Part shown: positions 46,646 through 51,327 of the stretch, one piece after another
Layout: each line of letters starts with the position of its first letter
Position numbering within the stretch: the stretch's first letter is position 1
NCBI GenBank assembly: GCA_027078545.1
Contig: JALWXN010000004.1
Span: 1,056,001-1,120,000, forward strand
Source of the DNA: Nitrososphaeria archaeon
GTDB lineage: Archaea; Thermoproteota; Nitrososphaeria; Geothermarchaeales; JDFR-13
Reading direction: 5' to 3'
Length of the DNA: 64,000 nt
Position numbers and translations under genes: made by a program
Notes under the pieces: model-generated
Told to the model about the DNA's origin: nothing
Databases searched by the model: none
Seen by the model: the letters and a program-made list of their open reading frames with translations, nothing else

Positions 46646-47191
46646 ATGATTAGGATAGGCTTCGCCGCATACAGCGGCGACCCCACCCACCGGGACATCG
46701 AGAACGCCAGGCAGCTCGTCACGACTCTATACAGGGAGGTCGACTTCAACAGGGTGGCCTTCCTCCTAGGCGGGTACTGGGGCCTCATGAGGGTCTTGGT
46801 GGACGAGCTGTTACAGCACGGCGGGAGGGTGGTCCTCTTCCCCCCACTGGAGCTGGAGAAGCTCGAGTATCCCGAGGGGGCGATAGTTCTACGCCTAGGC
46901 CTCTCCATGAGGGCTAGGAGCATCCCCCTCGTGAGGAGCTCCGACGTATTCATAGTCATGGGTGGTGAGGGGGGCTCGATACTAGAGCTCGTCACCAGCT
47001 ACGACGAGGGGATACCCACATACCTACTCACCGAGACGGGACACTCCACCGATAAGATGTCCTTCCTAACACCATACCTCGACAGGAGGAGGACTGTGGA
47101 GATCAAGGTCTTCAACGACCCTGTACAGCTGGCCGAGGACCTGATACAGAACCATCTACAGGGCGTCCTGAGGAGCGGGGCAACTAAGTAG
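46646..47191 (+). CDS. SLOG/LOG-family nucleotide-processing protein (TIGR00725-like)
   Basis: GGYWGLM, RARS..LVRSSD, GGEGGSILE. Confidence 0.8.
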   Translation: MIRIGFAAYSGDPTHRDIENARQLVTTLYREVDFNRVAFLLGGYWGLMRVLVDELLQHGGRVVLFPPLELEKLEYPEGAIVLRLGLSMRARSIPLVRSSDVFIVMGGEGGSILELVTSYDEGIPTYLLTETGHSTDKMSFLTPYLDRRRTVEIKVFNDPVQLAEDLIQNHLQGVLRSGATK

Positions 47192-47223: not shown

Positions 47224-48183
47224 CTACCTACCCATCCTAATGACTAGGTATGCCACTGGGATGGCTAGGAGAATGATTATCAGGTAGGTCAGCGGAGTAT
47301 TGACCAATCCATCCATCCCCTCCACACCAGTATCAGTACCAACAGCCTCTTCTGTGACCCTCTGGGCTGTGGTGTCCCCCGAGGATTCGGGCGAGGCTTC
47401 AGGAGACATCTCCTTATTGGATATCCACTCCTCATATGGCGAGAGAGGGAGCGGCTCGATCTCTGACTTATTAAAGGCTATGACTAGTGGATAGTCCCCA
47501 GGTATCGCCTCCCTCACATATGCAGCGAAGGCCTTGATATCCTCCATGCTCGGCTGTATATCACCCTGTATAACTATGAGGAGGGTCATCTCCAGCCCGA
47601 TCCTTATAGATGCGTGGAGACCCAGGAAGGTATCGATCTTACCATACCTTGAGAAGATCTCGACCGCCATATCATCTATCCTTTCTATAACGCTATCCTC
47701 ACCAGGCTGAGTAGGGCTGAGCACATCCCTTAGATACTCCACAGTCGACATGCTACCAAGCGTCGCATATACCTCCACCCTCTCAACACACCGGGGCAGG
47801 CTACTCACAACCCGGCCCACCAGATCCTTCTCCAGCCCACCCCATACCACGGAGATCTCCAGCACTCCAGAGCCGTTATTAAAGCTGACTTTCACCGTCC
47901 AGGGGAGGCTATCTAATATATGCCCCTCGATATCCTCTGGGCTACAGGGACTATCCTCGCCTCCAACCCTAGGAACCATGTATTCATCGGTCAGGCTATA
48001 GATATTCTCGCGGCCAAAGAGGATGTAGACATCACCATCAACATATGTATAGACGTCATAGTCTACAGGCTCATAGATCCTGATAATAACCATATCCTCC
48101 TGGGCCCCTACAACCTGTGTAGACCACCCGGGGGAGATGAGGAGGAGAGCCATCGATATGAGAAGGAGGAGTAGACTCCTCAT
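47224..48183 (-). CDS. Surface protein: signal peptide, S/T/E-rich linker, C-terminal TM
   Basis: Hydrophobic N- and C-termini; low-complexity linker SPEASPESSGDTT. Confidence 0.75.
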   Translation of the reverse strand: MRSLLLLLISMALLLISPGWSTQVVGAQEDMVIIRIYEPVDYDVYTYVDGDVYILFGRENIYSLTDEYMVPRVGGEDSPCSPEDIEGHILDSLPWTVKVSFNNGSGVLEISVVWGGLEKDLVGRVVSSLPRCVERVEVYATLGSMSTVEYLRDVLSPTQPGEDSVIERIDDMAVEIFSRYGKIDTFLGLHASIRIGLEMTLLIVIQGDIQPSMEDIKAFAAYVREAIPGDYPLVIAFNKSEIEPLPLSPYEEWISNKEMSPEASPESSGDTTAQRVTEEAVGTDTGVEGMDGLVNTPLTYLIIILLAIPVAYLVIRMGR

Positions 48184-48378: not shown

Positions 48379-49272
48379 CTATTTAAATACTGTCCCCGTC
48401 TCCATCGCCCATAGTAGGAGGTCGAGCTCTGCTGGGAGCATCCCCAGGTATCTAGCCAGCCATCGGAACCGGGTCTCCAGCTCGATATACCTCCTCCTCG
48501 ATAGGCTCTTGGGGTAGCTGTTTATCAGCCTGAGCCGGGCCATCCACCTAAGGATATGCCTGTCTAGTATTGCTAGGTGTAGACCCCTCCCTATGTTCCG
48601 GAGGAAGTGGCTAGCCTCCTTATATCCGAGGCCCTTCACACCCCTGACGAGCATCTCCCTAGCCTCTAGGGGGTCTTCTATGCTGAGTATCTCACCTAGA
48701 TATCCCTCCATGTATAGCCTCCTAGCCCCCACTATGTATTGGGACTTCTTCCTCCAGAATCTACATCCCCTGATCACCCTGCCTATGTCTCCCGGCCCAC
48801 CGCTGTATAGTGTTCCTGAGAGGTGGAGCTCCTTCACCTTCTCCCAGCACCTTATGGCGGGGCTCATAGGGGTGAGTAGGCAGAAGACCAGCTCGAGGAA
48901 TATCCTCTCATCCCCACACCTACCCACCTCCCTGAAGCTCTTGATGGCCCTCTCTATATCGCCTCTATACCTCTGATAAGCGTCCCAGACAGCCTCTAGG
49001 GAGCCGCCTGAGACGTAGGTGAAGAGCTTCACCTTGGAGCCGGGCTCCACCACCGTGTCTAGGCCGCTGTCCAGCATCACGTTCCTACCATCGACCAGTA
49101 TCCCGTAGCCAACACCCTCCCTCTCCAGCTCCTCCATAAGCCTCTTGAGCCCGGGTATGGATGAGATTATCGTTGATAGGGGCTCCGCATCCTCTATCTC
49201 CAGCCTTATATAGTCCCTCCCAAGCCTAGTCCTGAAGACGCCGTATAGTAGGATCTCCACCTCCCGGGGCAT
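48379..49272 (-). CDS. ogg: Ubiquitin-like (MoaD/Urm1/SAMP) domain fused to 8-oxoguanine DNA glycosylase/AP lyase (Ogg2 type)
   Basis: Residues 1-90 show a beta-grasp pattern ending ILVDGRN...LDT....G..V.LF..VSGG. Residues 91-297 contain ELVFCLLT, HhH VKGLGYKEASHFLRN, AILDRH and a C-terminal Lys. Confidence 0.88.
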   Translation of the reverse strand: MPREVEILLYGVFRTRLGRDYIRLEIEDAEPLSTIISSIPGLKRLMEELEREGVGYGILVDGRNVMLDSGLDTVVEPGSKVKLFTYVSGGSLEAVWDAYQRYRGDIERAIKSFREVGRCGDERIFLELVFCLLTPMSPAIRCWEKVKELHLSGTLYSGGPGDIGRVIRGCRFWRKKSQYIVGARRLYMEGYLGEILSIEDPLEAREMLVRGVKGLGYKEASHFLRNIGRGLHLAILDRHILRWMARLRLINSYPKSLSRRRYIELETRFRWLARYLGMLPAELDLLLWAMETGTVFK

Positions 49273-49308
49273 GGCTATCCAGGTTGATAAATAGGTTTGG
49301 GTGGGGGT

Positions 49309-51327
49309 CTACTCCCCCTTGAACCTCGGCTTCCTCTTCTCCAGGAAGGCCGATACACCCTCTATGAAGTCCTCCGTGGAGAAGGTTAGGCCGAAGAAGC
49401 CGGACTCTATCGCCTCTCCATGCCATAGATCCGTCTCTAGGCCTAGCTGTATCGAGTATTTAGCCGCTAGGAGCGCGAGTGGAGGCTTCTCAGCTAGTTT
49501 GAGGGCGAAGCTACGGGTATATTCCTCGAGCCTCTCAGGTGGGACCACCTTGTCAACCATCCCCATCTCAAGCGCCTCGTAGGCGTTGTACATATCGCCT
49601 GTATAGATCACCTCCTTAGCCTTTGACGGCCCTATCAGCCTAGCAAGCCTCTGCGTACCCGCGGCCCCAGGGATTATCCCAAGGTTTATCTCCGGCTGCC
49701 CCACAACGGCTAGTTCACTGGCTATGCGGAAGTCACCAGCCAGGGCCAGCTCCATACCTCCGCCCAGGGCGAAGCCATTTATCATGATTATGACAGGCTT
49801 CGTGAAGTACTCTATCTTGTTTGTCAGCTCCTGGAAACGCCTTGAGAATATTGCGGCCTTGAAGGGTGTGACACCGACGAAGCTATTGACATCTGCACCG
49901 GCGCTGAAGGCCCTACCCATACCTGTCAGTATCACCACCCTGATATCATCCATCTCCTCGATCCTGTTCAGAGCCTTGGAGAGCTCCTCTAGTAGCTTTG
50001 GCGAGAGTGCGTTGAGCTTGTCCGGCCTATTCAGTATTATCCATGCTAGGGGCTTCTCAAACCTTATTATCAGGGTGTCCATCCGCTCCTCCTCATAGCT
50101 TGGATACTTGTAGAAGCCCTCGCCACTCCTAACGCCTAGGAGGCCCTTACCAACCATCTCCCTCAGAAGCTGATCAGGCTCGAACATCTTCAGGCCTGAG
50201 GCGCTGTACATATGCTCCAACGCCTTCACCACATTGTCGAGGCCATACTCGTCGCCATACCTCAGTATACCCTTGGGGTAGCCCAGGCCTAGGACCGTGG
50301 CCTTATCAATATCATATTTAGACGCGATCCCCTCCCTAACCAGGTATGCAGCCTCGTTCACAGCTGGGGCTATAAGCATCACCGGGTTCAGATCCTCAGC
50401 CGCGTCCCTAGGTATCTCAGGCTTCACATACTTCCCAGGAGATGGGTACTGGTAGAAGCCCTCCCCACTCTTGACGCCATACTTACCCTCCCTATACTTC
50501 TCCTCGAAGAGTCCGCAGCTATATACCTCGGTACCCCTCTCGATCATCGCCTTAGCGACGAGGTAGAAGACGTCTATACCGCTATAGTCGGCCAGCTCGA
50601 AGACCCCCATCGGGAAGCCAAGCTTATACCTAGCCACGGCGTCGACAGCCTCTATAGAGGCGTTCCCACTCTCAACTAGCCAGCAGGAAGCCGCCATGAG
50701 CTTGAGCAGGATCCTGTTGACTATGAAGCCTGGGACATCCCTCTTAACAAGGACCGTCTGCTTACCAAACCTCTTCGCTAGGTCCTCGGTGATCTTGACG
50801 GTTAGGCTACTCGTCTTCTCCCCCCGTATCACCTCGACCAGCGGCATCAATGGGGGTGGGTTGAAGAAGTGCATACCAACAACCTTCTCAGGCCTCTTGG
50901 TAGCCTCTGCAATCTCGCTTATAGGGAGGCTACTCGTATTGGTAGCCAGGACAGCGTGCCCAGGGGCTAGCTCATCAACCTTAGAGAACACCTCCCGCTT
51001 AAGCTCGATCTTCTCAGGTATAGCCTCTATGACGAAGTCGGCATCCCCCACCGCCTCGGCAAGATCCAGCGTTGGGTGTATCCTAGCCATGATAGTATCA
51101 ACATCCTCCCTCAACATCCTCTTAGAGACCAGCTTCTCAACACTCCACCTTATCCTCCCCAGAGCATTGTCGAGGAACTCCTGCTTAATATCGTATAGAT
51201 AGACCTGGTACCCCGAGTACGCAGCCACCTCCGCAATCCCATGGCCCATCGTACCCGCTCCGAGGACGGCTATAACCCTTATGTCATCCACGGCCCCCAT
51301 CTCTACCACCCTATAGGCTGAGGACAT
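49309..51327 (-). CDS. 3-hydroxyacyl-CoA dehydrogenase / enoyl-CoA hydratase bifunctional protein
   Basis: GAGTMGHG, TNTSSL, HFFNP; C-terminal crotonase FSAGAD, GGGMEL, PEINLG. Start may be ATG 51300. Confidence 0.94.
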   Translation of the reverse strand: MSSAYRVVEMGAVDDIRVIAVLGAGTMGHGIAEVAAYSGYQVYLYDIKQEFLDNALGRIRWSVEKLVSKRMLREDVDTIMARIHPTLDLAEAVGDADFVIEAIPEKIELKREVFSKVDELAPGHAVLATNTSSLPISEIAEATKRPEKVVGMHFFNPPPLMPLVEVIRGEKTSSLTVKITEDLAKRFGKQTVLVKRDVPGFIVNRILLKLMAASCWLVESGNASIEAVDAVARYKLGFPMGVFELADYSGIDVFYLVAKAMIERGTEVYSCGLFEEKYREGKYGVKSGEGFYQYPSPGKYVKPEIPRDAAEDLNPVMLIAPAVNEAAYLVREGIASKYDIDKATVLGLGYPKGILRYGDEYGLDNVVKALEHMYSASGLKMFEPDQLLREMVGKGLLGVRSGEGFYKYPSYEEERMDTLIIRFEKPLAWIILNRPDKLNALSPKLLEELSKALNRIEEMDDIRVVILTGMGRAFSAGADVNSFVGVTPFKAAIFSRRFQELTNKIEYFTKPVIIMINGFALGGGMELALAGDFRIASELAVVGQPEINLGIIPGAAGTQRLARLIGPSKAKEVIYTGDMYNAYEALEMGMVDKVVPPERLEEYTRSFALKLAEKPPLALLAAKYSIQLGLETDLWHGEAIESGFFGLTFSTEDFIEGVSAFLEKRKPRFKGE

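Follow-up and report, generated by a model that had tools for sequence, protein, structure and literature searches.

The 64,000-nucleotide stretch of DNA analyzed here (the window; G000:C4:1056001-1120000, on contig JALWXN010000004.1 of GenBank assembly GCA_027078545.1) comes from a 1.24-Mb, 92%-complete metagenome-assembled genome (MAG) of a Nitrososphaeria archaeon, and the sequencing runs that contain the source DNA are hydrothermal-vent metagenomes. One gene on the reverse strand of this window encodes a protein, P0001, in which a ubiquitin-like (Ubl) domain of the ThiS/MoaD/SAMP family is joined through its Gly-Gly (GG) end directly to an Ogg2-type 8-oxoguanine DNA glycosylase. This Ubl-Ogg fusion is real and conserved, and both of its parts are under purifying selection. 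The reading that we favor, although we hold it with evenly balanced confidence, is that the fusion is a linear precursor that would be cut after G90 into a SAMP-like Ubl and an Ogg comprising S91-K297, and that making the two together would couple the Ubl to conditions of oxidative damage.

The Fused Gene and Its Two Domains

P0001 is an open reading frame (ORF) of 297 residues that runs without interruption from window position 49272 down to 48379 on the (-) strand, as seen from the ORF listing and its translation (Table 1). The Ubl end reads ...KLFTYVSGG, and S91 (TCC) follows immediately. This TCC is two changes away from any stop, and the first in-frame start-type codon past the junction is a GTG at V116; a start there would remove the whole first Ogg helix, such that full Ogg could be made only within the fusion. 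A preliminary description of this DNA had already pointed to the single ORF, the Ubl of residues 1-90 ending in VSGG, the complete Ogg2 domain from S91 with its three key residues, the distance of the TCC from a stop, and the lack of an alternative start near the junction, and each of these details that was tested proved correct. The junction-spanning peptide is LFTYVSGGSLEAVWDAYQR, and the ends left by cleavage would be SLEAVWDAYQR (neo-N-terminus) and ...LFTYVSGG (C-terminus). The Ubl thus stands N-terminal to its partner, joined through GG with no stop between, as in JAMM-processed linear precursors. Unlike ThiS/MoaD/SAMP Ubls with a free C-terminal Gly carboxylate, the primary product has G90 peptide-bonded to S91, and a carboxylate accessible to an E1 enzyme is therefore possible solely after proteolysis.

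Table 1. Features of the Ubl-Ogg fusion gene in window coordinates
Feature	Position	Strand	Remark
Whole Ubl-Ogg fusion gene P0001	48379..49272	(-)	Stop codon 48379-48381
Ubl domain, residues 1-90	49003..49272	(-)	MoaD/SAMP1-type beta-grasp (predicted)
Junction V87-S88-G89-G90 / S91 (gtc tca ggc ggc / tcc)	49000..49014	(-)	Proposed JAMM cleavage site after G90
Ogg2-type 8-oxoguanine DNA glycosylase/AP lyase (predicted), residues 91-297, complete	48382..49002	(-)	Profile, fold, catalytic residues
K218 codon, predicted HhH (helix-hairpin-helix) catalytic lysine	48619..48621	(-)	Aligned to MjOgg K129
D237 codon, predicted catalytic aspartate	48562..48564	(-)	Aligned to MjOgg D147
K297 codon, C-terminal lysine	48382..48384	(-)	Aligned to MjOgg K207

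Within the Ubl part, the Pfam ThiS profile (PF02597) covers residues 42-90, with its last position falling on GG90, and scores 21.6 bits in whole P0001 (just below the cutoff of 22.5) versus 25.1 bits for residues 1-90 alone. Ubl domain scans place 14 of 14 aligned relatives above the cutoff of the same profile, and G89 and G90, which align to the final profile positions, are invariant in all 14 sequences. The NCBIfam models moaD_arch (TIGR01687) and SAMP1 span residues 5-90, weakly but end-to-end to GG90; their subfamily cutoffs (49.5 and 60 bits) are not reached by the P0001 Ubl, which makes it a divergent ThiS/MoaD/SAMP member and no SAMP1 equivalog. A profile built from an alignment of the Ogg-linked Ubls with the six nearest ordinary free-GG Ubls (A3) matches, over its own full length, MoaD/SAMP entries of the PDB, namely, 2m19 (E 4.6e-14), 2l52 (M. 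acetivorans SAMP1; E 9e-13), and PfMoaD (E 1.7e-11). The AlphaFold2 (AF2) model of the domain contains strands at residues 4-9, 21-25, 56-60, and 80-85 and helices at 12-17, 32-37, and 40-51, and Foldseek matches it to SAMP3/SAMP1 structures (2m19, TMt 0.63, as well as 2l52, 4hro, and 3po0). Residues 1-90 are thus modeled as a beta-grasp fold, formed by residues 4-85.

The Ogg part is matched by the Ogg-HhH profile PF22175 (E 1.9e-47, 161.5 bits against a cutoff of 27) and by the N-glycosylase/DNA lyase equivalog NF002305 (190.1 bits against a cutoff of 183, profile positions 7-210 of 210). Its AF2 model superimposes on MjOgg (3knt_C) with a template modeling (TM) score of 0.93 and a root-mean-square deviation of 1.7 Å at 35% identity, and Foldseek also matched 3n0u, 3fhf, and 3fhg. 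K218, D237, and K297 of P0001, which are invariant or nearly so across 12 homologues, align to K129, D147, and K207 of MjOgg (3fhf), which are the HhH catalytic Lys, the catalytic Asp, and the C-terminal Lys, respectively. Judged by its sequence, the segment 91-297 is a complete and ordinary Ogg2-family member, with predicted activity as an 8-oxoguanine glycosylase/AP (apurinic/apyrimidinic) lyase. It shares with the structurally characterized Ogg2 proteins (MjOgg 3fhf/3knt, SsOgg 3fhg, and TmOgg 3n0u) its sequence (E 2e-32), its fold, and these catalytic and C-terminal residues, whereas all solved and nearly all database members are single-domain proteins of ~205-220 residues to which P0001 adds the 90-residue N-terminal Ubl. 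The AGOG family (PF09171) was not matched in the genome, although control genomes gave no match either, so that this result says little; the fused Ogg is the only 8-oxoguanine DNA glycosylase detected in this archaeon.

The AF2 model of whole P0001, computed from a 56-row alignment, has a mean per-residue confidence (pLDDT) of 94 and an overall predicted TM score (pTM) of 0.72, with the pLDDT falling to 73 over residues 81-90, and the first Ogg helix begins at residue 92. Predicting the complex of Ubl (1-90) and Ogg (91-297) as separate chains gave a score of 0.08 against a mark of 0.32, which counts neither way. In the alignment, the GG falls at approximately positions 2-3 of stand-alone Ogg, which leaves no linker between the two domains. 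This last point bears on an alternative in which P0001 is a permanent two-domain enzyme whose Ubl stays in place and serves Ogg in an accessory capacity, as Ubls do in eukaryotic shuttle and repair proteins, and might dock Ogg to a partner (the proteasome/Cdc48, PCNA, or E1) or modulate DNA binding. We consider this somewhat unlikely. Such an arrangement would be in line with a Ubl tail that meets the natural Ogg N-terminus immediately ahead of the first helix, and with a Ubl that lies in the sequence where Ogg1 has its extra N-terminal domain; however, the modest pTM next to the high pLDDT, together with the dip at the junction, suggests no fixed packing between the domains. Further evidence on this alternative comes from the relatives of P0001.

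Conservation, Fission, and Loss of the Ubl

The source of the sequence is a MAG, and in the close relative G003 the junction is occupied by two ORFs in different frames; an erroneous junction base that joins two neighboring genes would produce the same appearance as P0001. However, window positions 48990-49015, for which the preliminary description had asked for read support, are bridged by contigs from three further samples of two studies with no indel within the ORF (indels occur only outside it), and the one variant of the G90 codon among these contigs is synonymous (GGC>GGA). Within the 90%-identity cluster of P0001 there are six sequence variants, which come from assemblies of NCBI, ENA, and Logan. 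The 95%-identical relative G002, labeled Candidatus Geothermarchaeota, is likewise fused, as are distant orthologues at 47-55% identity that lie on contigs as long as 449 kb. We therefore regard an assembly or sequencing artifact as practically negligible.

The preliminary description had also proposed looking for the architecture and its GG in other genomes, and both are found there: fusion and SGG are retained in five 90%-identity protein clusters that are 47-55% identical overall. The junctions read YVSGGF in P0003 and P0004, ISGGDILNREVDP in P0005/P0128, and VSGGSDP in P0006. P0010 is fused too, but the GG is absent at its junction, and its Ubl has diverged too far for BLAST to detect, although conservation of its Ogg is normal (50-56%). 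SGG is retained in eight of the nine Ogg-linked Ubl lineages. Nine aligned Ogg-linked Ubls, 35-56% identical except for the 89%-identical P0002, share eight invariant positions, among them S88, G89, and G90, which is the constraint that would be expected for a functional Ubl tail. Between the window's genome and G002, the ratio of nonsynonymous to synonymous change (pN/pS) is 0.30 for the Ubl (binomial p 0.002 versus neutrality) and 0.08 for Ogg.

Searches with the Ubl point to the same small group of proteins. When the Ubl alone was used in an exhaustive HMMER search over 50% representatives, only 11 proteins were returned; the nearest of these are without exception linked to ogg, and behind them come ordinary Ubls of 88-90 residues with a free GG end. 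Two of the 11 matches (893 and 628 residues, with many short stretches) were taken for noise from repeats or coiled coils. A word-based search limited to the Ubl region matched P0002 only, a profile search for longer proteins found the Ubl fused to no partner except Ogg (the five known fused clusters), and a whole-protein search for related loci recovered just three distant Ogg genes besides the relative at 95% identity.

Split forms occur in the same-genus genome G003 and in three metagenome contigs, where the Ubl gene ends SGGI-TAG and is followed, after one nucleotide, by Ogg starting at TTG. These encode a separate 87-residue Ubl and an Ogg of 214 residues from the conserved TTG. In one short contig, the Ubl carries a seven-residue tail after its GG and is overlapped by the Ogg ORF in a different frame. 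Programmed +1 frameshifting was weighed as an explanation for the split forms (GGT ATT TAG A TTG) and rejected: the stop is preceded by ATT in G003 but by ATC in the P0136 contigs, which leaves no conserved slippery site, whereas the TTG start is conserved. The Ubl-less relatives P0011 and P0013 retain the same synteny (fadB-like, ogg, and a convergent SLOG gene), with a spacer of 44-56 nucleotides where the Ubl would be. We note that P0013 (L027:2501-3160 (+)) starts with MEVRYRLSNQ ahead of the conserved Ogg N-terminus, and that this start resembles strand 1 of the Ubl (e.g., MTIYIKLYTG), as if an in-frame deletion had taken most of the Ubl of a fused ancestor. As a separate observation, the 128-residue metagenomic protein P0133 is a variant at 71% identity that continues through VSGGSLEAIWEAYRRYREDIRRAIKN before it diverges and stops, and it may be either the truncated or frameshifted Ogg of another population or the product of a broken contig.

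In a tree of the Ogg domain, all Ogg-linked forms fall into a single clade (support 100/99), in which the fused forms are paraphyletic and the split forms are nested. The most parsimonious history is a single fusion in the ancestor of a small Candidatus Geothermarchaeota vent clade, with later fission and loss of the Ubl. Since the split forms arose inside the fused clade, the separated products must be viable. The preliminary description had named two separate genes or a missing GG in close relatives, together with a lack of any cleavage or turnover effect, as grounds for refutation. Some relatives do have two genes, the GG is missing in one, and the Ubl is missing in two; in the tree, however, these states are derived within the fused clade, and the fusion is thus not refuted; what does suffer is the case for a deep link between protein tagging and repair, because the Ubl-less relatives indicate that Ogg needs no Ubl.

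The variety of these states raises the possibility that the Ubl is an evolutionary passenger, that is, that a duplicated SAMP/MoaD gene was fused upstream of ogg by loss of a stop and that its near-functionless product is now being split, degraded, or deleted. Fused, split, overlapping-split, GG-less, and Ubl-less states at one syntenic locus among close relatives in a small clade are what such a passenger might leave behind, its constraint is relaxed relative to that of Ogg, and no fewer than four further Ubls are encoded in the genome. Even so, the pN/pS of the Ubl is significantly below the neutral value, Ubl and SGG have persisted in five fused lineages whose Ogg domains have drifted down to ~50% identity, and the Ubl model folds confidently as a beta-grasp, and we judge this explanation to be improbable.

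The same relatives cut both ways for a permanent accessory domain. The GG is blocked in every member of the Ubl clade, this type of Ubl was never found apart from ogg by HMMER and profile searches, and conserved Ubl fusions without demonstrated cleavage exist, such as Cgi121-Ubl of Thaumarchaeota (PMC2948915). An invariant SGG is, however, hard to reconcile with a mere tether, although a hinge is possible, and split forms with a separate 87-residue Ubl persist in several lineages, while elsewhere the Ubl has been lost twice and Ogg kept.

Masked Ubls and Proposed Processing of the Fusion

The genome has six ThiS-family matches, including the Ogg-fused Ubl. Two are free Ubls that end in VGGG and AGG, and one further Ubl has no GG. 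The MoaD (L013:1486-2253 (+) = G000:C4:646107-646874) carries a 15-residue tail (SRFKPPAEYSYGCGD) after PPVSGG, and its stop abuts the ATG of moaE; this tailed MoaD needs C-terminal processing to act as a sulfur carrier. MoaD chemistry, as established for molybdopterin synthase, requires a free GG, and the presence of the tailed form therefore implies that a GG-exposing protease must operate in the cell. A second Ubl fusion (L017:538-1806 (-) = G000:C4:636156-637424) has a ThiS-type domain ending in VVSGG that leads directly into a PP-loop ATPase with a zinc finger, an SGGKDS motif, and Pfam ATP_bind_3 and tRNA_Me_trans matches, where the residue after GG is A; its sequence suggests a TtuA/Ncs6-like tRNA thiolase with a presumed sulfur carrier. 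All three masked Ubls (Ogg-fused, TtuA/Ncs6-fused, and tailed MoaD) thus have VSGG followed by S or A. We also observed two tandem Ubl genes at G000:C4:449736-450335 (+) (L016/L014), the first of which ends in PRALFVL without GG and the second in PPVGGG.

JAMM and E1 genes, which the preliminary description had named as things to look for, are both present. The one JAMM of the genome (G000:C4:427184-427642) matches Prok-JAB (E 1.1e-13) and PfJAMM1 (5LD9/5LDA; E 7e-23), and by alignment its HxH...SxxD metal site is intact (HGH...SSLD versus HSH...SGKD in PfJAMM1). No second JAB was found in the genome (92% complete), and each of the four members of the genus that were searched has a JAMM. A full-length ThiF-type E1 lies at C4:480730-481806. 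Neither a Ubl nor a proteasome gene is linked to the JAMM or the E1 in their gene neighborhoods. The JAMM (L021:1417-1851 (+)) divergently adjoins an ORF for a 106-residue Hjc-like Holliday-junction resolvase (L021:1076-1396 (-); Pfam Hjc E 9.5e-11), an adjacency that could reflect a DNA-repair neighborhood or chance.

Experimental precedent for the processing of such fusions exists in other organisms. In Haloferax volcanii, an engineered linear fusion of SAMP1 to MoaE has no activity until HvJAMM1 severs it, which happens precisely behind the GG both in vitro and in vivo; when the GG or the whole VSGG tail of SAMP1 was deleted, cleavage in vivo was no longer detected (PMC4443979). The MoaD-MoaE fusion that occurs naturally in D. 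radiodurans is a substrate of DRJAMM, and PfJAMM1 has been reported to recognize SAMP2 regardless of the attachment at its C-terminal Gly (PMC8832034). Oxidants, in turn, induce Urm1/SAMP conjugation in archaea and eukaryotes (PMC12625751), and in Thermococcales there is an association between peroxiredoxins and Ubl genes (PMC2948915).

Taking these observations together, the processing of P0001 would most likely proceed as follows. The product would be made as a MoaD/SAMP1-type Ubl joined via its own VSGG tail, by an ordinary peptide bond, to the natural N-terminus of Ogg2, and the single PfJAMM1-like JAMM/MPN+ metalloprotease of the genome would then cut after G90 post-translationally, which would free an Ogg with S91 as its first residue and leave the Gly-Gly of the Ubl exposed. 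The E1-like enzyme could subsequently adenylate the freed Ubl for conjugation or sulfur carriage. The preliminary description had offered a processed precursor as one of two options, and this is the option that fits best, being favored by the retention of SGG, the natural splits, the presence of JAMM and E1, the two other masked VSGG Ubls, and the published cleavage of SAMP1-MoaE; the cleavage itself, argued by analogy with the latter, and a tie of the Ubl to the oxidative-stress response through its co-production with Ogg are what we infer from these. The other option, in which a genetically pre-tagged enzyme is sent to the proteasome, found no specific support.

Several points weigh against a processed precursor. 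We know of no biochemical connection between a sulfur carrier or modifier and Ogg. The SGG could persist simply as a flexible hinge. A free GG end is absent throughout the Ubl clade, whose members are all either fused or carry a GG+1 or GG+7 tail, and a tail that never comes into use would account for this equally well. The loss of the Ubl in two lineages at the same syntenic spot, together with a constraint that is 4-fold weaker than that on Ogg, indicates a dispensable role. Finally, the di-glycine is said in a review to be unnecessary for cleavage of linear fusions by HvJAMM1 (PMC8832034, citing Hepowit 2012), which weakens the argument from GG conservation.

A more elaborate version of the processed precursor would make the Ubl a protease-gated switch for repair, in which Ogg is born Ubl-tagged and remains inactive or mislocalized until JAMM removes the Ubl, in analogy to SAMP1-inactivated MoaE. 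Under oxidative stress, the freed Ubl would be activated by E1 and reused, for example, in conjugation to, or persulfidate protection of, the conserved Ogg cysteines C119 and C131 or other stress proteins, and a single desampylase would license three pathways (Ogg, the masked MoaD, and Ubl-TtuA). We put this forward as a speculation that we think is quite unlikely to hold.

Relation to Known Ubl Fusions and Gene Neighborhood

The nearest counterparts of P0001 are the Ubl-MoaE linear fusions, of which MoaX of M. tuberculosis is another example. Both have an N-terminal MoaD/SAMP1-type beta-grasp that leads via (V)SGG straight to the N-terminus of an enzyme, both are found with a JAMM in the genome, and in both fused and split two-gene forms alternate among relatives. 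The partners differ, in that MoaE is the obligate partner of MoaD whereas Ogg has no known use for a sulfur carrier; so does the nature of the evidence, as cleavage of the Ubl-MoaE fusions is shown while Ubl-Ogg is known from sequence, with moderate inter-domain confidence in AF2. To our knowledge, JAMM-cleaved linear Ubl-enzyme fusions have so far been known only with the sulfur-transfer partner of the Ubl, MoaE. The arrangement of P0001 thus belongs to a known class, and the DNA glycosylase partner is apparently new.

In eukaryotic ubiquitin precursors (ubiquitin-ribosomal protein and polyubiquitin) and in the ubiquitin/CsRpn11 system of Caldiarchaeum (PMC6043591), the GG is likewise masked by a peptide bond and the partner is made at 1:1 stoichiometry. 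There, a dedicated protease releases the modifier, which for Ubl-Ogg is proposed by analogy; Ubl-Ogg differs, moreover, in having a modifier of the MoaD/SAMP1 family instead of ubiquitin, in pairing it with a repair enzyme, and in being limited to a small archaeal clade. The catalogue of Makarova and Koonin 2010 (PMC2948915) includes Cgi121-Ubl, Ubl-E1, and Ubls beside PP-loop ATPases and peroxiredoxins, and thereby shares with our case a ThiS/MoaD-type Ubl that is fused to, or in an operon with, a protein from outside the sulfur pathway, as well as an association with oxidative stress; the words "glycosylase" and "repair" have no occurrences in that paper, and Iyer et al. 2006 do not mention a glycosylase partner. 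In the literature covered by our full-text searches, we found no description of a Ubl/ThiS/MoaD-Ogg architecture, in line with the preliminary description, which had suspected as much.

A conserved fusion with a DNA glycosylase would widen the range of born-fused archaeal Ubls to genome maintenance, in parallel to ubiquitin-ribosomal protein fusions and to the roles of ubiquitin and SUMO in base-excision repair. The biological effect may nevertheless be modest, considering the small clade and the dispensability of the Ubl in close relatives. The fused, split, GG-less, and Ubl-less orthologues at one locus provide a natural experiment on how an N-terminal Ubl affects an enzyme, and Ubl-Ogg would offer a simple thermostable substrate for studies of archaeal JAMM specificity.

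Upstream of the fusion gene, at window 49309-51327 (-), lies a gene for a 672-residue FadB-like protein that fuses 3-hydroxyacyl-CoA dehydrogenase and enoyl-CoA hydratase. In relatives, acyl-CoA dehydrogenase and thiolase genes precede the FadB-like gene, and the FadB-like/ogg synteny is kept clade-wide. A TATA-like TATTTATC is present at window 49286-49293 (-), 14-21 nucleotides 5' of the ATG and inside the 36-nucleotide spacer behind the fadB-like gene. If this is the promoter, the transcript start may be near or past the ATG, and the GTG at V5 (49260-49258) could be the true start; we note that orthologues start ~3 residues later than P0001. On the other side of the gene, a 319-residue ORF at window 47224-48183 (-), with a hydrophobic N-terminus, a C-terminal hydrophobic anchor, and no Pfam match, sits between ogg and a SLOG-cluster4 gene (46646-47191). 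Since the SLOG gene is directly convergent on ogg in the relatives, this ORF looks like an insertion.

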